IMG/VR virus record: IMGVR_UViG_2541047875_000009
Span: 1-19,987 of that record
Strand: one strand, 5' to 3'
DNA length: 19,987 nucleotides
DNA from: a virus
Taxonomy: Duplodnaviria; Heunggongvirae; Uroviricota; Caudoviricetes
Part shown: positions 1 to 8,370 of the stretch, one piece after another
Numbering within the stretch: position 1 is the stretch's first letter
Layout: each line of letters opens with the position of its first letter
The notes under the pieces: generated by a model
Told to the model about the DNA's origin: nothing
Database searches by the model: none
What the model saw: the letters and a program-made list of their open reading frames with translations, nothing else
Position numbers and translations under genes: made by a program

Positions 1-1269
1 ATGCCAAAACTCACAGATATGCAGATCCGCGCATGGATAAAGGCGGGAGACAGATTTGATGGCAAGGCAGACGGCAACGGCCTTTATATTTGCTACCCCA
101 AAAACTACACAGTCCCGTTCTGGCGATTCCGATATAAGCTCGCAGGAAAACAGCGGGCTATGGTTATCGGCTCTTACTCCGAACTGTCACTATCAAAAGC
201 CAGAGAAACAGCAAAAGAGCTGTCAGCCAGAGTTGCTCTTGGCTATGACGTAGCAGCAGAAAAACAGGAACGAAAAGCTGAAGCACTGGCAAAAATGGAG
301 GCTGAGAAAAACGCCATGCGCGTTTCAGATCTGGCCGCCGAATACTTCGAGCGACAGATACTTCCGAGATGGAAACATCCCGATATCCTTCGCCGGAGAA
401 TTGATAAGGATATTAACCCCTGCATTGGGCATATGAAGGTAGAGGACGTTAAGCCACGCCACATTGACGACATGTTGAAAGGTATCGTTGACCGAGGAGC
501 ACCAACGATAGCAACAGATGTATTACGCTGGACACGCCGTATCTTTGACTATGGGATAAAACGCCACGCTCTGGAGATAAACCCTTGTTCAGCGTTTGAA
601 GTATCTGATGCTGGTGGTAAAGAGGTTTCCCGCGACCGTTGGCTAACTCGCGATGAGCTTATCAGGCTATTCGAGGCTATGCGCACCGCAAAAGGATTCA
701 GCCGCCAGAACGAACTGACATTTAAGCTATTGCTGGCACTATGCGTTCGTAAGATGGAGTTATGCGCCGCACGATGGGAAGAGTTTGATTTAGATGGTGC
801 GGTATGGCATTTGCCGGAAGAACGCAGCAAAAACGGAGACCCTATTGATATACCTCTACCTTCTCCTGCCGTTGAATGGTTGAGAGAGCTACACACCTTT
901 TCATGTAATAGCGCATGGGTGCTTCCAGCTAGGAAGATGCAAAACAGAATGATCCCACATATTCAGGAAAGCACTTTACCCGTAGCACTGGCTAAGGTTC
1001 GCGCCGAAATGCCGGATGTGCCTAATTTCACGATTCACGACTTCCGGCGTACCGCACGTACTCATTTAGCAGCATTGGGTGTTGATCCTGTCGTAGCGGA
1101 ACGATGCCTCAATCATCGCATTAAGGGTGTGGAGGGGATTTATAACCGCCATCAGTATTTTGATGAGCGTAAAGCTGCGCTGGCACAGTGGGCTGATCTG
1201 CTGGTGGCACTGGAAAGCGGGAAAGACTACAACGTAACGCCATTCGATAAAGCCCGGAGGCAAATGTGA
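1..1269 (+). CDS. int: P4-type tyrosine integrase (site-specific recombinase)
   Basis: 422-aa ORF starting at the first base of the window. C-terminal region has the R...HDFRRT...LNHR...Y pattern typical of phage-type tyrosine recombinases; overall layout resembles P4/CP4-type integrases. Assignment from translated sequence only. Confidence 0.9.
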   Translation: MPKLTDMQIRAWIKAGDRFDGKADGNGLYICYPKNYTVPFWRFRYKLAGKQRAMVIGSYSELSLSKARETAKELSARVALGYDVAAEKQERKAEALAKMEAEKNAMRVSDLAAEYFERQILPRWKHPDILRRRIDKDINPCIGHMKVEDVKPRHIDDMLKGIVDRGAPTIATDVLRWTRRIFDYGIKRHALEINPCSAFEVSDAGGKEVSRDRWLTRDELIRLFEAMRTAKGFSRQNELTFKLLLALCVRKMELCAARWEEFDLDGAVWHLPEERSKNGDPIDIPLPSPAVEWLRELHTFSCNSAWVLPARKMQNRMIPHIQESTLPVALAKVRAEMPDVPNFTIHDFRRTARTHLAALGVDPVVAERCLNHRIKGVEGIYNRHQYFDERKAALAQWADLLVALESGKDYNVTPFDKARRQM

Positions 1270-1916
1270 ACAACATCTTGAGAAAATCGCCAATCGAACG
1301 GCTTTGTTCATCTGTATCGATTACCCCTCATGAAATGGCTGTGGCCTTGGCTGGCCTAAACCCATCTATGCGCATTAGCGATGTGCCTGAGGAAAATTTC
1401 GAATATGTCGATTTTGTCAGAACTCATCTTGCCAGAGCTATCAAGGTGTACAGAGGTGAAAAAACTAGTAAAGACGAGCCTTGCCATGCCCTTGATATTT
1501 TCTTAGCTTCTTACCCATTTATTGACACAAATACACCAGAAATAATTGTTCAGAAAATATCAGAAGCGATTGATGATTTGCGTGGCACCAAGGGCTGGGA
1601 AGAAAAAGCCCGAAACCTTGGAGGACTCCAGTTAGTAAACTACATCAAAGAAACCAACCGCAGCGGACGTGGGCAGCATAGAAAGCAGGATGAGGAAAAC
1701 GGGACAATGAAAATGATGGGGTTGATAGTACATCTGCTGATAAAAAAATCAGGCTCATCTTCCTACATCCAAAATGGGAAACCTAATCGCACAGCTATAT
1801 ACCGTGACATAGAAACCTTAATCAAGGATGAAGGGATATCCCATAAAGGAATAGCAAAAGCCACATTCCTAGAAAAAATCTCACGGGCTTTATTAGCTGT
1901 CCACGATCTCGACTAA
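1266..1916 (+). CDS. hypothetical protein, AT-rich accessory ORF translationally coupled to the integrase
   Basis: 216-aa ORF with a GTG start at 1266 overlapping the int stop (ATGTGA) and GGAGG at 1256-1260. An alternative ATG start lies at 1335. Noticeably more AT-rich than int. No motif I recognise. Confidence 0.55.
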   Translation: MNNILRKSPIERLCSSVSITPHEMAVALAGLNPSMRISDVPEENFEYVDFVRTHLARAIKVYRGEKTSKDEPCHALDIFLASYPFIDTNTPEIIVQKISEAIDDLRGTKGWEEKARNLGGLQLVNYIKETNRSGRGQHRKQDEENGTMKMMGLIVHLLIKKSGSSSYIQNGKPNRTAIYRDIETLIKDEGISHKGIAKATFLEKISRALLAVHDLD

Positions 1917-2387
1917 TCACTTTTCACGCCCCTCCAAAGCAATGGCGGGGTATTACCTGTTTACCCATCTCCACCAGCATAGATAATTCTATGCCTAGCC
2001 ATTGCTATATCTGTTCGGCTTAGTTCATCTGTAATCACCCCATCTCTAAAAGATACGCCAGCTATCATTAGCCATTTTAAGCCATCATGAGCCATTATAA
2101 ACCGACTCAACCAATTGAATAATAAAAGATAAAAGGAAATGTAAAAACATGATGAATGACGATGAAAGATATAACTCTTTGATAAAACAATGATTTTTTA
2201 AACTGGTAACTAATTGAAAATAAAGAAAATAATTATCCCACCTGCATTTGCAATCTTTCAGTGGATCAGTATTTTTTCAATAGATTTATAATTTCTTTCA
2301 ATAGATTCTAGTCTTAATAGAAATACTGTATGGGCAACCACTAAACTTTAAGTAACTTCATGAGCTATCAGAGAGGTTACTAGAGAT

Positions 2388-2606
2388 ATGACAGCACACA
2401 AGCCAGCATCATCAGCTATCCCAACAACTGGATACATCCGTCGCTTTCGCATGCCGGAATTGCTAGGTGTTTCACTGCCTACTATTGATAGATGGGTTAA
2501 AAATGGCACTCTTCCACGCCCAGTGAAGCTGACAGATAACGTGACTGCGTTTGATGCGGTGGAAATTAATAACTGGCTGGCAGAACGCCGAAACACATCA
2601 GCCTGA
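2388..2606 (+). CDS. alpA: AlpA-family phage transcriptional regulator (HTH, excisionase-like)
   Basis: 72-aa ORF; the segment RRFRMPELLGVSLPTIDRWVKNGTLPRPVKL matches the AlpA/prophage CP4-57 regulatory protein helix-turn-helix pattern. GAGAGG-type RBS upstream. Preceded by about 470 bp of AT-rich non-coding DNA. Confidence 0.8.
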   Translation: MTAHKPASSAIPTTGYIRRFRMPELLGVSLPTIDRWVKNGTLPRPVKLTDNVTAFDAVEINNWLAERRNTSA

Positions 2607-2680
2607 TTAAATGACTACGGGGGATGACGTTCAACCCCACCAGCAAACAAAAGTAACTTAATTTAATAGCAGGTGTTTTT

Positions 2681-3505
2681 ATGAAACTGCGAAAAACGCC
2701 CGTACAGGGGCAGGGCTTCGTTCGGCCTGAAAACCAGAATCTGCAAAATTTCGGCGAAATTATCCCGGTTATTTCCGGCGTTATTGGCGGGCGTGAAGCC
2801 GCTGTTGTTAGCGCAAAAGCGTTACACAAAGCGTTGGGCGTGGGAAAAGACTTCTCTACATGGATCACTGATCGTATCTCTGAATATGACTTCACCATTG
2901 GGTACGATTACTCAGTCCATAAAACAATTTCCCCAAATTTGGGGAAAAGCCCGAATGGCGAGGCTTACAGCAAGATTAAGCACTCTGGCAGACCCGGTAA
3001 AGACTATCTGTTAAGTGTCGGAATGGCGAAAGAACTGGCAATGATCGAACGCACCGAACAGGGCCGCGCCGTTCGTCAGTACTTCATCAAATGCGAGGAG
3101 GAGCTACACAAGGTAGCGCCTGTACGTTCCGCAGCGTTACGCCGGGAACTGAAAGCCCGTATCACCGTAGCCAGCTACTTTAAGCCGATGTGTGCCGCGC
3201 TGGAGGCGTACCGCGCTGAACTGGGTAAAAACACGCTCCAGCACCACTACACCACGGAAGCCAATATGCTGGCGCGTATCGTGCTGGGTGGCATGACTGC
3301 AAAACAGTGGGCGCAGGCGAACGGCATCACAGGCGAACCACGCGACCACATGAGCACGCTGCAGCTTGAGCACCTTTCTTACCTTGAGCAGAGCAATATC
3401 ACGCTGATTGAGTTAGGCCAGGACTACCACCAGCGGAAAGCTGAATTAATTCGTCTTTCGCAACGCTGGTTAGCCCGCCGCATGGAGGTGAGCAGCCATG
3501 CGTAA
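2681..3505 (+). CDS. phage antirepressor, AntA/AntB-like N-terminal domain with a KilA-C-like C-terminal part
   Basis: 274-aa ORF. N-terminal region (AKALHKALGVGKDFSTWITDRI ... GKDYLLSVGMAKELAMIERTEQGRAVRQYFI) resembles the AntA/AntB antirepressor domain. Domain call is from recollection of the family pattern. Confidence 0.7.
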   Translation: MKLRKTPVQGQGFVRPENQNLQNFGEIIPVISGVIGGREAAVVSAKALHKALGVGKDFSTWITDRISEYDFTIGYDYSVHKTISPNLGKSPNGEAYSKIKHSGRPGKDYLLSVGMAKELAMIERTEQGRAVRQYFIKCEEELHKVAPVRSAALRRELKARITVASYFKPMCAALEAYRAELGKNTLQHHYTTEANMLARIVLGGMTAKQWAQANGITGEPRDHMSTLQLEHLSYLEQSNITLIELGQDYHQRKAELIRLSQRWLARRMEVSSHA

Positions 3506-3914
3506 ACCTGTCTTTTATGCCGGGCGCACTGAAATCTCTGTCATTAAATTCGATGACATTCAGGTGCGCATAGTGAGTATCAACGGCGAGCCGTGGTTTG
3601 TTGGCGCTGATGTGTGTGCTGCGCTGGAAATCAGCAATGTTACTGATGCTGTTTCAGTTCTGGATAACGACGAGGTAATGACCCTAGCTTTAACCGAGGG
3701 GCATTCCGGTAAGCGTGGTGGTGCCAGAAGCTGGAATGTTGTCTCTGAATCAGGTTTCTACAAACTGATCGCCCGCAGCCGTAAAGCTTCCACACCTGGC
3801 ACATTTGCGCACCGTTTCAGTAACTGGGTATTCCGCGAGGTTATTCCTTCAATCCGCAAAACGGGGAGTTATGGTGTTCCGTTTGCCATGCTGAATGATT
3901 TCAGTAAACGCTAG
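3498..3914 (+). CDS. Bro-N domain protein (phage antirepressor-type DNA-binding domain)
   Basis: 138-aa ORF overlapping the upstream gene by 8 nt with GGAGG at 3484-3488. The IKFDDIQVRIVSINGEPWFVGADVCAALE segment matches the Bro-N hallmark. Confidence 0.7.
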   Translation: MRKPVFYAGRTEISVIKFDDIQVRIVSINGEPWFVGADVCAALEISNVTDAVSVLDNDEVMTLALTEGHSGKRGGARSWNVVSESGFYKLIARSRKASTPGTFAHRFSNWVFREVIPSIRKTGSYGVPFAMLNDFSKR

Positions 3915-4113
3915 GCTGCATATCAACAGGAAGCCAGCAAACGCGGTTACAGGTTACAGCAATGCAAAGAGGCAAAAGATGCACTGGAACGAGAAGAGCG
4001 GGCGCTATGGCGTAAATATCAGCCTGATTTTCTGGAGGGTGAAAGCAATGTGTAACGATCCGAACGTTACAGAAAGAAAAAGCGCCCCGTTGCTAGATAA
4101 CAGGCAAAACAAA

Positions 4114-4134
4114 GGCGACCGGGATAGGTCGCCA
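4114..4134 (-). terminator. putative rho-independent terminator for the minus-strand regulator transcript
   Basis: Perfect 7-bp inverted repeat GGCGACC ... GGTCGCC (4114-4134); on the minus strand it is followed by TTTGTTTTG. Confidence 0.4.
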
Positions 4135-4199
4135 GTGGGAACAAAGGAAATCAAACGCATCGCCAACAATGCCAGATTTGCGGCTGGTGGGCAATGTGA

Positions 4200-4379
4200 T
4201 CAGTCAGATTTGGTTCGTTCCAGGGTTTGCAACGAGAGCTTTTTCCTGTGCTCTTTAAGGAATTTCTCAAGAGCAAACGAACAAGGTGCGAATCTTTCTG
4301 ATTCATGTTCATGCGCTATATTTTTGCGTCGTCTCTTACGAGTTGGTGATGGTGTTTTTGTTGATTCTGTGTCGCTCAT
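4200..4379 (-). CDS. small basic protein (59 aa), not in the supplied ORF track because it is under 60 aa
   Basis: Hand translation of the minus strand from ATG at 4379-4377 to TGA at 4202-4200 gives MSDTESTKTPSPTRKRRRKNIAHEHESERFAPCSFALEKFLKEHRKKLSLQTLERTKSD. Sits between the RHH gene and the terminator hairpin. Weak RBS. Confidence 0.3.
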   Translation of the reverse strand: MSDTESTKTPSPTRKRRRKNIAHEHESERFAPCSFALEKFLKEHRKKLSLQTLERTKSD

Positions 4380-4436
4380 GGTGCTGCCCTGTAAAGCAAT
4401 GCGCCTGCGTTCCTCAAACTATGGCGCTGATAGTGG

Positions 4437-4616
4437 CTATTCCTGCTCTTTGGCCTTGCGCCGCTGGCGGCGTTTGATCTCGCCTTCAAGTGCTGAAACG
4501 ATAAATTGTCCCGTGCTTTCGCCAGCTTCCTTTAAGTTTTCTACAGCGTCGGCTATTGCGTGGGGAACTCGTGCTTCAAGTTTCTTCGATTTTGCATTAA
4601 CGGCCTTCGTTGCCAT
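4437..4616 (-). CDS. ribbon-helix-helix (CopG/Arc-like) small DNA-binding regulator, putative repressor
   Basis: The listed 98-aa minus ORF is best started at its internal ATG (4616-4614), giving 59 aa MATKAVNAKSKKLEARVPHAIADAVENLKEAGESTGQFIVSALEGEIKRRQRRKAKEQE, with an AGAGGA RBS 8 nt upstream. Divergent from the replication operon. Confidence 0.55.
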   Translation of the reverse strand: MATKAVNAKSKKLEARVPHAIADAVENLKEAGESTGQFIVSALEGEIKRRQRRKAKEQE

Positions 4617-4636
4617 ATCTGGATTCCTCTTTATTA

Positions 4637-4718
4637 GGTGGCTGACAGTATACACACAAGAAATCGAAAAAACACTATTGACGTGGCTGACACCTGTTAC
4701 TAATATGGTGGCTGACAC
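4637..4718 (+). promoter_or_regulatory. divergent promoter/operator region: sigma70-like promoter overlapped by three direct repeats
   Basis: TTGACG (4678-4683), 17-bp spacer, TAATAT (4701-4706). Direct repeats GGTGGCTGACA at 4637-4647, CGTGGCTGACA at 4682-4692 and GGTGGCTGACA at 4707-4717 overlap the -35 and lie just downstream of the -10. Confidence 0.5.
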
Positions 4719-4816
4719 TTTTAGTTGTTGCAAGCAACAAAACGACGAAACCCCGCACTGTTGGAGCAGTAACGGGGCCTCTAACCACCAACGATAGCGA
4801 AAGTATCGAGGTAGCT

Positions 4817-5020
4817 ATGTTAAATCATACCACACACCCGCAAGGGCGGGATTCGCACAACCTGAATAAATACATCTGGCGTTTTATCGCCCTGAGCACG
4901 GCACAACCGCGCGTGATTACCATCGAGGCCACCAGCGAACAGAAAGCCCGTCAGCAATCCCCGGCTGGCTGCGTGATGGTATTTACTGCTCGCATCCGTC
5001 AGGGGGAATACTATGCGTGA
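4817..5020 (+). CDS. small protein, possibly Icd-like/Ash-family (P4-type islands)
   Basis: 67-aa ORF with GAGGT RBS; first gene downstream of the promoter. Family call is from memory of similar small proteins in P4-like prophages and is uncertain. Confidence 0.45.
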   Translation: MLNHTTHPQGRDSHNLNKYIWRFIALSTAQPRVITIEATSEQKARQQSPAGCVMVFTARIRQGEYYA

Positions 5021-5270
5021 TGAACGATTTATTCTTCTGGAGCAAAAATTCAGTGAAGCGCCAAAAAATGAAATTGATGCTCTTTTGCATATCGCGAATA
5101 TGCTAAAAGTAGCAACGTTCCTTATAGTTTCGAATCTGGAGCATGAAACGGCGTTAGATATACTGAACAGTGCTGTCGATTATTCTGAATATATTGCCGA
5201 GGATAAATACAGGCAATTACCAGATTTGTTAGCCCATAAATATAAAGAAGAACCTCACACCGGGAAATAA
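5013..5270 (+). CDS. hypothetical protein
   Basis: 85-aa ORF whose ATG overlaps the upstream stop (ATGCGTGA), indicating translational coupling. AT-rich. Confidence 0.5.
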   Translation: MRDERFILLEQKFSEAPKNEIDALLHIANMLKVATFLIVSNLEHETALDILNSAVDYSEYIAEDKYRQLPDLLAHKYKEEPHTGK

Positions 5271-5272
5271 AC

Positions 5273-5575
5273 ATGAAGAAGATTAAATTTACTGGCTTAA
5301 ATGCCAGCGGACAGACTCATCCGAAAATCAGGATCGGGGATATTTTCCGGGATAAATATGGTGACAGCGTGGTTATTAATTCCGTGTATGAACGGCACAT
5401 TACATACCGCCGCGCAGGGTATGACTATGACTGTGTGATGCCCGTTCATCAGTTCCGGCGTGATTTTTCACTGGTATGTGCAGCACCACGCAGTAAGCCC
5501 ACCAGTAAAGAGAAAGCACGGGCAAATATTCAGGTAATAAAGAACATGATTAACGCATTCAGGGGCAAGAAATGA
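5273..5575 (+). CDS. hypothetical protein
   Basis: 100-aa ORF immediately after the previous gene; its stop overlaps the start of the replication gene (ATGA). Confidence 0.5.
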   Translation: MKKIKFTGLNASGQTHPKIRIGDIFRDKYGDSVVINSVYERHITYRRAGYDYDCVMPVHQFRRDFSLVCAAPRSKPTSKEKARANIQVIKNMINAFRGKK

Positions 5576-7698
5576 AACGCGCACCGAATTTAAAGCACCA
5601 GCCGAAAGACAAAATGACGGAGGTGATTATCTTTGCGGGTAGTGATGCCTGGGCACATGCGAAAGAGTGGAGCGAATGGGCCGGAAAGCATATTGCGGCA
5701 GATGATACACATCCAGTTATTCTTGGACCGGAACAACTGGCGAGTCTGGCAGACACGCAAATCATCGACAAAGGGCGCTATTACGTGCGCGTTTATCGTG
5801 CTGGTGAAATATCAGAGCAGCACCTTACACAGATAGCGACACTGCTTGCAGTGGCGGGTGTGAAGGAGGCGCGTTGCTACCGCAGCTTTGTTGATCAGCA
5901 GCCGGAGGACTGGACACCGCGCATGACTGGACTGAAGGATGATGCGGAACGCGGTAACAGTCTGGTGATCAACCTTCCGGCGAAGACAAATTTCACCGGA
6001 AATTATGATGACGAATTAAAGCCTCGTGTTGAAAGTCGCGTCGATGGTGTTTTCTGGGTAACGCCCAAAGTGGACAAGCAGTCAGGCGAAATTATCCGGC
6101 CTGAGACGTGGTTATGTTCTCCGCTTGAACTACTGGGAACAGGAACAATCGGCAAAGAGCATTACCGCGTGATGCGCTGGAAAAAACCAGCAAACCATGA
6201 GGTCATTACAATGGCGGTCCCGTGCGGAGGCATTGGTGACCGTGACGGCTGGCGGTTGCTGAAAGACCACGGCCTTAACGTGACGACCAACGGCAAATAC
6301 AGGGCTATCCTGGCTGACTGGATGCAGTTAAGCGGAAACCATGAGGAATGGCAGTTAAGCACAACAACGGGGTGGCATTTTGGTGCGTACATCATGCCGG
6401 ATGGTTCGATCATCGGTGAATCAGAGAAACCCATCCTGTTTACCGGAAAAACTGCCGCTGTTAATGGCTATTCCGTGGCGGGAACAGCGGAGGGCTGGCG
6501 CGATACCGTGGCACGGCTGGCTGGTGGTAATCCGTCCATGATGCTGGGTGTGGCGGTATCGCTATCTGCACCATTAATCGGGCTGGTGGGTGCTGACGGC
6601 TTCGGGGTTCATCTTTTTGAGCAATCATCAGCAGGTAAAACCACCACACAGAACATTGCCTCAAGTTTATGGGGAGAGCCGGACGCGCAACGGCTGACCT
6701 GGTACGGAACGGCGTTAGGTATCGCCAACGAGGCCGAAGCACATAATGACGGGCTGTTACCCCTGGATGAAATAGGCCAGGCCGGAAACGCACGGGAGGT
6801 GTCCACGTCAGCCTATACGCTGTTTAACGGTTCCGGGAAATTACAGGGGGCGAAGGACGGCGGCAACAGGGAGATAAAACACTGGCGTACGGTGGCAATC
6901 AGCACCGGAGAAATGGACGTTGAAACATTCCTCAAAACGGAAGGGATAAAAATTAAAGCGGGGCAGCTTGTCCGTCTGCTTAACGTACCGATGGAAAAGG
7001 CCTCGCAGTTTCACGAATACAGCACCGGAAAGGCGCACGCAGACGCGTTAAAAAATGCCTGGACAGAAAATCACGGGGCGGCAGGTCGTGAGTGGGTTAA
7101 ATGGCTGGCAGGTCACCAGCAGGAGGCAAAGGACGCGGTAAAGGCATGTCGCGAGCGGTGGCGCAACCTGATACCGGAGAGCTACGGCGAGCAGGTTCAC
7201 CGTGTGGGGGAAAGATTCGCCGTACTGGAGGCCGCGCTTGTGCTTTCCGGTCATGTTACAGGCTGGGATGTTCAGGCGTGCCGTGATGCAGTTCAGCATA
7301 ACTTTAATGCCTGGGTGAAGGAATTCGGCACGGGCAACAGGGAATTTAAACAGATGGTTGAACAGGCTGAGGCGTTTTTGTCGTCGTTCGGGTTCAGTCG
7401 ATACCTTCCCTATCCAAACAGCGACGAGCGTGATTTACCGATTAAAGACCTTGCCGGATACAGAAAGGGGAGCATCAGAAACGAAGATGAGGAGTTCCGT
7501 TTTTACACGTTCCCGCATGTGTTTGAGGGTGAGATAGCACAGGGATTTAATCCGTCTCACTTTGCCCGCGCGTTGAGTGCTGCCGGAATGCTGGAAGCGG
7601 GAGGCGACCGCCGTTACAAGAAAAAGGCGCTCGGCAGGATTGGCGGGAAGCAGCATATTTTTTACGTGCTGATGTTCCAGCCTGAAGCAGAATATTAA
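5572..7698 (+). CDS. putative replication initiator / primase-helicase-like P-loop NTPase (satellite pri-rep type, possibly DUF927-like)
   Basis: 708-aa ORF. Walker A-like EQSSAGKTT (coding 6631-6645) and Walker B-like LLPLDEIG (about 6757-6780). Followed directly by an iteron cluster. Family name is from recollection. Confidence 0.75.
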   Translation: MKRAPNLKHQPKDKMTEVIIFAGSDAWAHAKEWSEWAGKHIAADDTHPVILGPEQLASLADTQIIDKGRYYVRVYRAGEISEQHLTQIATLLAVAGVKEARCYRSFVDQQPEDWTPRMTGLKDDAERGNSLVINLPAKTNFTGNYDDELKPRVESRVDGVFWVTPKVDKQSGEIIRPETWLCSPLELLGTGTIGKEHYRVMRWKKPANHEVITMAVPCGGIGDRDGWRLLKDHGLNVTTNGKYRAILADWMQLSGNHEEWQLSTTTGWHFGAYIMPDGSIIGESEKPILFTGKTAAVNGYSVAGTAEGWRDTVARLAGGNPSMMLGVAVSLSAPLIGLVGADGFGVHLFEQSSAGKTTTQNIASSLWGEPDAQRLTWYGTALGIANEAEAHNDGLLPLDEIGQAGNAREVSTSAYTLFNGSGKLQGAKDGGNREIKHWRTVAISTGEMDVETFLKTEGIKIKAGQLVRLLNVPMEKASQFHEYSTGKAHADALKNAWTENHGAAGREWVKWLAGHQQEAKDAVKACRERWRNLIPESYGEQVHRVGERFAVLEAALVLSGHVTGWDVQACRDAVQHNFNAWVKEFGTGNREFKQMVEQAEAFLSSFGFSRYLPYPNSDERDLPIKDLAGYRKGSIRNEDEEFRFYTFPHVFEGEIAQGFNPSHFARALSAAGMLEAGGDRRYKKKALGRIGGKQHIFYVLMFQPEAEY

Positions 7699-7720
7699 CT
7701 TCCCTGTGTGAGGTAAAAAG

Positions 7721-7846
7721 TTGCGGGTTATGCGGGTTATCCTGTGTATAAGTTAATTAAATGCATGATTAAAAAGGAAATCAATAACCCGCACGTAACC
7801 CGCAAAACGGCAGTTATAACCCGCAAATGTGCGATTGTAACCCGCA
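7721..7846. repeat. iteron cluster, putative replication origin
   Basis: Tandem direct TGCGGGTTA x2 (7722-7740), an AT-rich spacer (7751-7780), then inverted copies TAACCCGCA at 7785, 7796, 7817 and 7838 (spacings 11, 21, 21 bp). Starts 23 bp after the replication gene stop. Confidence 0.6.
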
Positions 7847-7908
7847 AAATTTCACTGTAAGAGTGTAAACAAGCGTAACTATCACGTTAAAACCGGAGAA
7901 CAAACAGC

Positions 7909-8334
7909 ATGACGGCGCAAATATCAGCTTACGGGCGGCTGGTGGCTGACCCGCAGTTAAAGACCACCAGCAAGGGCACACAAATGGCGATGGCGAGTAT
8001 GGCGGTCCCCCTTCCATGCAATCAGGCAGATGACGGAACGGCGACGATGTGGTTATCCGTCCTGGCGTTTGGCAGACAGGCTGACGCACTGGCAAAACAC
8101 CACAAAGGCGAACTGGTGAGCGTGGCCGGTAACATGCAGGTGAGCCGGTGGACGGGCCAGAACGGCGAAACGAGGCAGGGATGGCAGGTTATCGCAGACA
8201 GCGTAATCAGTGCGCGAACGGCGCGACCGGGCGGCAAAAAAGGCCAGCAGGGGCAGGCTACTGATGCACTGAACAGGGCAAAGCAACAGACAGGCCAGCA
8301 CGATGATCCGTACGGGGACGGGATACCGTTTTAA
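7909..8334 (+). CDS. single-stranded DNA-binding protein-like (OB-fold SSB family)
   Basis: 141-aa ORF. N-terminal GRLVADPQLKTT and the WLSVLAFGRQAD ... GELVSVAGNMQVSRWTGQNGETRQGWQV pattern resemble the SSB OB-fold; C-terminus ends in GIPF like the SSB acidic tip (DDDIPF). Confidence 0.65.
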   Translation: MTAQISAYGRLVADPQLKTTSKGTQMAMASMAVPLPCNQADDGTATMWLSVLAFGRQADALAKHHKGELVSVAGNMQVSRWTGQNGETRQGWQVIADSVISARTARPGGKKGQQGQATDALNRAKQQTGQHDDPYGDGIPF

Positions 8335-8370
8335 TTCACAACAGCGAACAGAGTAATTACAGGGGAAGGC

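Follow-up and report, generated by a model that had tools for sequence, protein, structure and literature searches.

In the Staphylococcus aureus pathogenicity islands (SaPIs), the master repressor Stl is encoded next to int at the left end of the satellite, upstream of the region that controls excision and replication, and it is extremely divergent between related islands. In phage lambda, CII drives both cI and int, so that the repressor is made together with Int. Here, we describe ORF216, a 216-codon open reading frame (ORF) located between the tyrosine integrase gene int and the regulator gene alpA of a putative phage satellite of Escherichia coli, within a 19,987-nucleotide stretch of DNA (positions 1 to 19,987 of IMG/VR record IMGVR_UViG_2541047875_000009, hereafter the window). 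Stl and the lambdoid immunity cassettes are its closest analogues in position, divergence, and proposed role, though ORF216 falls outside both by sequence, fold, and orientation. Like stl, it adjoins int and diverges strongly, with genes of its family only 35% identical between loci whose integrases share 87% and whose AlpA proteins share 83% identity. Unlike stl, which is divergently transcribed, it is co-directional with int and alpA and coupled to int, and no similarity to Stl was detected in sequence or fold. With the lambdoid cI/cro genes and their operators, it shares the swapping of a (here putative) regulator gene and its adjacent cis-region as a unit between conserved flanks, and the production of ORF216 together with Int may be likened to lambdoid establishment logic; it differs in having neither cI/Cro or HTH_3 homology nor a divergent promoter pair, and in that its proposed target is an activator gene, alpA.

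Two further comparisons are informative. Among the excisionase-type HTH proteins (AlpA, Vis, Xis), AlpA belongs to the same module and shows a short local similarity to ORF216 at residues 193-208 of the latter, whereas ORF216 is far longer (216 amino acids vs about 70), is mostly unrelated to this group, and scores far under the family thresholds. ORF216 also lies, as satellite defense cargo does, in an interval where phage-inducible chromosomal islands (PICIs) reportedly carry accessory and immune genes, but it is the constant flank of that interval, is seen at only this position, and is on the opposite side of int from the P4 hotspot. Published work places PICI accessory genes between int and the regulator and PICI immune systems at the 5′ end, while the published P4 hotspot is psu-int rather than int-alpA. 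An earlier sequence-only reading of this DNA had named the int-alpA interval as a common position of variable accessory or defense genes in P4-like and CP4-type islands; this holds for the variability of the interval and its use by PICI accessory genes, and does not hold for P4.

A real gene translationally coupled to the integrase

As read from its genes, the element is an AlpA-type phage satellite (PICI/P4-like) of E. coli, about 18.9 kb long and located between yicC and dinD, because int, alpA, and a replicase gene lie on one strand, structural and lysis genes are absent, and attachment-site (att) repeats flank the whole. Its int-alpA region contains the following features.

1-1269, plus strand: int, tyrosine integrase of 422 amino acids (Arm-DNA-bind_3, Phage_int_M, Phage_integrase)
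1256-1260, plus strand: ribosome-binding site (RBS) GGAGG inside the 3′ end of int, 5 nt before the GTG of ORF216
1266-1916, plus strand: ORF216, PHROG 30524 family protein, predicted all-alpha, with a basic C-terminal part and a helix-turn-helix (HTH)-like motif at residues 193-208; GTG start overlapping the int stop
1928-1951, plus strand: G+C-rich hairpin right after the ORF216 stop, a candidate, though a weak one, for the terminator of the int-ORF216 unit
2060-2099, plus strand: 10-bp unit AGCCATNNTN repeated four times in tandem, with no further copy in the window
2100-2253, no strand assigned: spacer separating array and boxes, very AT-rich (about 29-33% GC)
2254-2324, plus strand: three to four TTTCANTRGAW boxes in direct orientation, repeating every 20-21 bp, at 70-135 bp upstream of the alpA start
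2346-2385, plus strand: leader hairpin over the alpA RBS (-14.6 kcal/mol, z -3.3)
2388-2606, plus strand: alpA, AlpA-family HTH regulator/excisionase of 72 amino acids (family match)

ORF216 is a functional gene under selection, because an intact copy of ≥99% identity is annotated in each of 114 complete E. coli genomes and because the ratio of nonsynonymous to synonymous substitution rates (dN/dS) between two copies is 0.019 (dS 0.10), a value of strong purifying selection; this confirms the 216-amino acid plus-strand gene proposed by the sequence-only reading. An allele of about 69% identity is found in 91 further complete E. coli genomes, O157:H7 among them. The same reading had placed the start of the gene in an ATGTGA overlap with the int stop, of which the overlap stands and the start does not: int ends in AGG CAA ATG TGA with its stop at 1267-1269, so that the ATG is the last methionine codon of int, and ORF216 begins with GTG at 1266-1268, a 4-nt overlap (GTGA) that is backed by homologues whose alignments begin at residue 1-3. 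The GGAGG proposed as its RBS is present as listed, and the proposed translational coupling is borne out by the start/stop overlap and by the same arrangement in homologous loci (designated here by L and a number). Among these, the family gene overlaps the int stop as ATGA in L006 and L008 and as TAATG in L003 and L015, and starts 1-8 nt after it in L009, L012, L016, and L144. ORF216 is also AT-richer than int, as had been noted, with a GC content of 42.5% (41.5% at third positions) compared to 49.3% (47.0% at third positions), and the 471-nt spacer before alpA has 33.8%. The remaining genes of this mosaic island range from 37 to 60% GC, however, and composition alone therefore says little about acquisition and is no proof of the separate origin that had been read from it.

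A fixed place behind the integrase and upstream of the cargo

The gene family keeps a strict position. In 15 of 15 locus types (all those with upstream sequence), the ORF216-family gene lies directly 3′ of a tyrosine integrase gene on the same strand, even as the integrases are only 25-28% identical in the most distant cases, the insertion sites include yicC, ssrA, lptG/yjgB, and der, and the hosts include Escherichia, Klebsiella, Buttiauxella, Chimaeribacter, and others. The two genes overlap or are separated by no more than 10 nt in most loci, with wider spacings of about 29 nt in L147 and 98 nt in L014.

Where cargo is present, it lies downstream of the ORF216-family gene and before alpA. 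This is clearest in L016, L144, and L145, whose family genes are 91-96% identical and whose AlpA proteins are 94-97% identical, yet which carry three unrelated gene sets in between: Abi_alpha plus an Mrr-type nuclease (L016), three other genes, and one 1490-amino acid protein. Such unrelated cargo between near-identical neighbors places the variable cargo site downstream of the family gene, and from these alignments the ORF216-family gene appears to be the conserved flank of a cargo hotspot, not its content. In L145 (6686-7684), int is cut to its last ~120 codons, the family gene is intact (227 amino acids as called), and the unannotated 1490-amino acid protein and alpA follow in that order. 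The suggestion that ORF216 is itself a separately acquired cargo or defense gene is thus not supported: the family was seen only directly behind the integrase and in no other genomic context, and it has no PADLOC match, while the finding closest to hotspot behavior is its replacement by another family behind integrase genes that are 98-99% identical (see below). In practical terms, the ORF216-family gene can serve as a left anchor for cargo mining, with the insertion point in this lineage lying between the gene and alpA.

Hypervariability and exchange together with the alpA upstream region

Between its conserved neighbors, the family gene varies on a course of its own. The identities of Int, the ORF216-family protein (ORF), and AlpA in four pairs of loci were as follows.

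Window vs L008: Int 88%, ORF 35-36%, AlpA 58%
L008 vs L054: Int 87%, ORF 35%, AlpA 83%
L012 vs L147: Int 88%, ORF 35%, AlpA 57%
Window vs L148: Int 64%, ORF 72%, AlpA 82%

ORF identity is thus largely uncoupled from that of Int and AlpA. Between L008 and L054, DNA similarity is lost at about nucleotide 1242 of int and regained about 12 codons into alpA, and the exchange unit therefore comprises the ORF plus the whole alpA upstream region. When cargo is swapped, by comparison, the alpA upstream region stays conserved, and an exchange that includes this region is more readily expected of a regulatory cassette than of cargo.

The slot can also be filled by other proteins. E. coli islands at the yicC site with int genes 98-99% identical encode unrelated proteins of 281, 316, and 307 amino acids in this place, with the breakpoint at int nucleotides 1241-1245, which bears out the variability that had been proposed for the interval. 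The members of this second family are:

L004, 5356-6201: slot protein of 281 amino acids
L005, 5273-6223: slot protein of 316 amino acids
L007, 5376-6299: slot protein of 307 amino acids

These three proteins are 22-28% identical to each other, while the flanking Int and AlpA are 90-99% identical; no Pfam family was found for any of the three, and none has homology to ORF216. Immediately upstream of alpA, which is almost identical among them, each allele has a repeat or palindrome of its own. Judged by eye only, their shared N-terminus resembles an excisionase/HTH_17 motif. EcCIMP1, an experimentally mobilized PICI, has no gene in the slot. Going by these sequences, the slot is either empty or occupied by a member of one of at least two families that evolve fast.

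Repeated elements between ORF216 and alpA

The region exchanged with the gene is rich in repeats. All main-clade spacers have 10-bp-phased arrays at the same place with differing unit sequences, and related ORF216 alleles are followed by related array units. The unit CCGTGCCAGT is present in four vs two copies in near-identical elements (L140 2150-2205 vs L148 5790-5830), so the spacer arrays expand and contract. Two candidate identities of the window's array were rejected: it does not represent integrase arm sites, since the att-proximal repeats have another sequence, GTGTACAT, and are about 2 kb distant from it, nor primase iterons, which have a different motif (TGCGGGTTA).

The TTTCANTRGAW boxes were detected in 12 of 14 loci of the family, including loci whose Int and AlpA are <30% identical to those of the window, and were absent from the islands with the alternative slot family despite an AlpA 67-69% identical to that of the window, which is closer to the window's than is the AlpA of the box-bearing L006, L008, and L010. 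The P0046/47/49 clade has three TCCGGAC boxes adjoining alpA in place of TTTCANTRGAW.

Hairpins at the position matching 1928-1951 are found in homologous loci as well. The hairpin over the alpA RBS could exert translational control of alpA, and where the other family fills the slot, a GUAAC/GUUAC-cored hairpin takes the corresponding place in the alpA leader. Two sites share an exact 13-mer, TCATGAGCTATCA: the yicC-int spacer (L001 19880-19892, not within the att repeat) and the loop of the hairpin in the alpA leader (window 2358-2370). Related copies are present in the 10-bp array and within alpA, and the sharing of the 13-mer may be due to chance. Rfam searches over the whole window found no RNA family, and hence no P4-type CI/C4 immunity RNA was detected.

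A small protein family with a possible helix-turn-helix

PHROG 30524, which has no assigned function, is the sole family to which ORF216 belongs, with a full-length match (E 3e-34, 119.5 bits, residues 11-209 of 216 vs profile positions 14-213 of 220). Consistent with the earlier statement that the protein has no recognizable motif, there was no match in Pfam or NCBIfam, none in PADLOC-DB v2 (0 families at E ≤ 10), none in sequence searches of the PDB with either a single sequence or a profile, and no homology to YfjH of CP4-57. Structure prediction, which had been proposed as a check, gave a confident AlphaFold model (predicted local distance difference test score, pLDDT, of 90) that matched no structure in the PDB or BFVD. 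The family is small: among 1.84 billion representatives, it accounts for only 28 clusters at 50% identity. A profile search yielded 44 proteins, none of them annotated, a degenerate motif scan of genome contigs gave four true loci, its other matches being mostly chance, and two of three scans of viral contigs gave no match.

Several features of the C-terminal part hint at nucleic-acid binding. The last 85 residues are basic (isoelectric point 9-9.8) in 22 of 24 family members, and the best-conserved blocks are residues 133-144 (SGRGxHRKxDE) and 193-204 (KGxxKSTFYxK). In profile-profile comparison (hhalign), residues 193-208 aligned with the turn and recognition helix of AlpA at E 0.005 and a probability of only 7%. 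Weak, sub-threshold Pfam matches were scattered across the 24 members (HTH_Tnp_Mu_2, Phage_AlpA, and SpoIIID), and the only PADLOC match was that of one homologue to the "DNA binding HTH" model (0.055). ORF216 itself did not match PF05930/HTH_17, and the Phage_AlpA match of the best homologue (E 0.024-0.071) fell short of the Pfam gathering threshold. That the weak matches all fall on HTH families suggests an HTH motif in the C-terminal part of ORF216.

A possible regulator of the alpA switch, and its rivals

We tentatively propose that ORF216 acts on the alpA switch as a DNA-binding regulator produced along with Int, a reading that we regard as possible if short of probable. Mechanistically, Int and ORF216 would be translated together from the int transcript, and ORF216 would be present whenever Int is made, i.e., in the integrated state and upon entry into a new cell. 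It may bind the repeats in the AT-rich stretch that separates its stop codon from alpA; the candidate sites are the 10-bp tandem array, which is specific to the allele, and/or the boxes spaced at 21 bp. Binding would determine the activity of the alpA promoter, most likely by keeping it silent until a helper phage relieves the block, and the gene for the master activator and excisionase would in this way be kept off after integration; allele divergence and cassette exchange might then give rise to island-specific immunity-like and/or helper-specific regulation. A regulator accounts for the locus better than cargo because of the strict linkage to int, the restriction to satellites, and the exchange with the alpA control region, as well as the allele-dependent arrays, the basic HTH-like tail, and purifying selection combined with extreme divergence between lineages. 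Three points weigh on the other side: the observed co-variation could be explained by physical linkage alone, the TTTCANTRGAW boxes may belong to AlpA, and the model of ORF216 has no fold match in the PDB or BFVD.

The same hypervariability beside conserved flanks is typical of arms-race genes too, and ORF216 might instead be a single-gene anti-phage or superinfection-exclusion "moron" that is expressed with int in the integrated state and diversifies in conflict with phages. This would agree with a slot that varies among islands of 98-99% int identity, with a gene that is AT-richer than int, with the immune systems and accessory genes reported at the 5′ end and between int and regulator of PICIs, and with the defense-like cargo (Abi_alpha, Mrr_cat) in the same interval of L016; many defense genes, moreover, carry no annotation. 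If so, ORF216 would represent a new single-gene defense system, and its fold would be new as well. We consider this somewhat unlikely, as ORF216 has no PADLOC match, its family (28 clusters, 15/15 locus types) occurs only directly after the integrase whereas defense genes are usually found in other contexts too, real cargo is inserted downstream while the family gene stays constant, and the gene is exchanged with the alpA regulatory region and left untouched by cargo swaps.

The coupling to int, strictly conserved across integrases down to 25-28% identity, and the basic and possibly DNA-binding nature of the protein would also suit an integrase accessory factor, either an architectural or directionality protein or a modulator of Int stability or target choice, held at a fixed ratio by the coupling. 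We give this little credence, given that the identities of ORF and Int are weakly correlated (Pearson 0.47, with Int pairs at 85-90% having ORFs at ~32-36%), that nearly identical int genes work with a non-homologous partner or none, that the candidate sites are about 2 kb from the att repeat at window -81..-57, that the family gene of L145 is intact behind the remnant of int, and that the role of excisionase is already filled by AlpA. As for the arrays, 10-bp direct repeats with a very AT-rich stretch behind them are laid out much like iterons or centromeres, their copy number varies, and a 12,152-bp circular sister satellite, whose ORF216 is identical, is on record as an assembled plasmid, all of which could indicate that ORF216 binds the array as a centromere- or origin-like site and aids maintenance or replication of the excised circular satellite. 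With no partition NTPase nearby, different iterons of its own for the replication protein (7722-7849 and 18300-18456), and no array after the family gene in the clade with cargo, very little credence can be given to such a role.

The satellite and its other contents

The window is 100% identical to E. coli MS 196-1, where the island sits between yicC and dinD. Its genes lie on one strand in the order int-ORF216-alpA-antA-BroN-Icd-DUF4222-DUF927-SSB-ProQ-PerC, followed by four large unannotated ORFs (BroN, a Bro-N pseudogene; Icd, Icd-like; DUF927, the replication protein; ProQ, ProQ/FinO), and no phage structural genes are among them. A 25-bp direct repeat, CGTGTACATAGAGGTGTACATAAT, with two mismatches, lies at window -81..-57 (57-81 bp before int) and at 18839-18863; it is the same repeat as that at L001 19919-19943 and 38839-38863, written CGTGTACATA(GA/AG)GGTGTACATAAT, and extra copies of GTGTACAT lie before int in an att-proximal position. 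The 25-bp repeat and the GTGTACAT copies are probably the att core and arm sites, which would make the island ~18.9 kb long. The gene layout and the repeats at both ends agree with published descriptions of Gram-negative PICIs and P4-like satellites.

An ORF216 homologue occupies the same position in a 16.5-kb capsid-forming satellite recorded as "Escherichia phage vB_KppS-Ant." The circular sister satellite (L146; NZ_CP148430.1, 1-12152) is a complete 12,152-bp "plasmid" with int, ORF216, alpA, antA, ash, TOPRIM-DUF927, and PerC, in a host strain that also has chromosomal copies, and it is probably an excised or replicating form.

Two clusters of a 9-bp iteron (TGCGGGTTA / TAACCCGCA, also present as 21-bp units) were observed, one at 7722-7849 just after the DUF927 replication gene and one at 18300-18456 near the right end of the island, and together they resemble the P4 layout of ori and crr. 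Four large plus-strand ORFs with overlapping boundaries (9935-17596; 843, 686, 918, and 104 amino acids) take up the right half of the satellite, and none of them had a Pfam or PADLOC match; the matching region of the related EcCIMP1 encodes P22-like DNA-ejection proteins. The four ORFs could be unrecognized cargo, e.g., a defense system or ejection-protein-like genes. RefSeq annotates the identical genome with an internal stop in the Bro-N gene and a frameshift in the PerC gene (window 3498-4055 and 9274-9499), and this copy of the satellite may be partly decayed.

Implications for AlpA-type satellites

A regulator of a mobile element is an ordinary kind of gene. Neither the family nor its fold nor the fixed coupling to int appears to have been described in the available literature, and the protein accessions of the family are not mentioned in the literature searched. 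Published studies of Gram-negative PICIs describe AlpA as a helper-induced, self-activating master regulator and excisionase, and the papers available name no repressor and leave the route from helper to alpA activation unexplained. By analogy with Stl, the ORF216 family and the family of 281-316-amino acid proteins might together be the missing master regulators of AlpA-type Gram-negative satellites, produced along with Int and binding island-specific operators upstream of alpA so as to silence the island, with each allele released by a different helper-phage protein. This broader proposal is unlikely as a whole; if true, it would explain why the slot genes are the most variable ones between the conserved int and alpA. 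An int-coupled, hypervariable gene that is exchanged with the alpA upstream region is, in any case, an obvious candidate for the missing determinant of specificity or immunity in these satellites.

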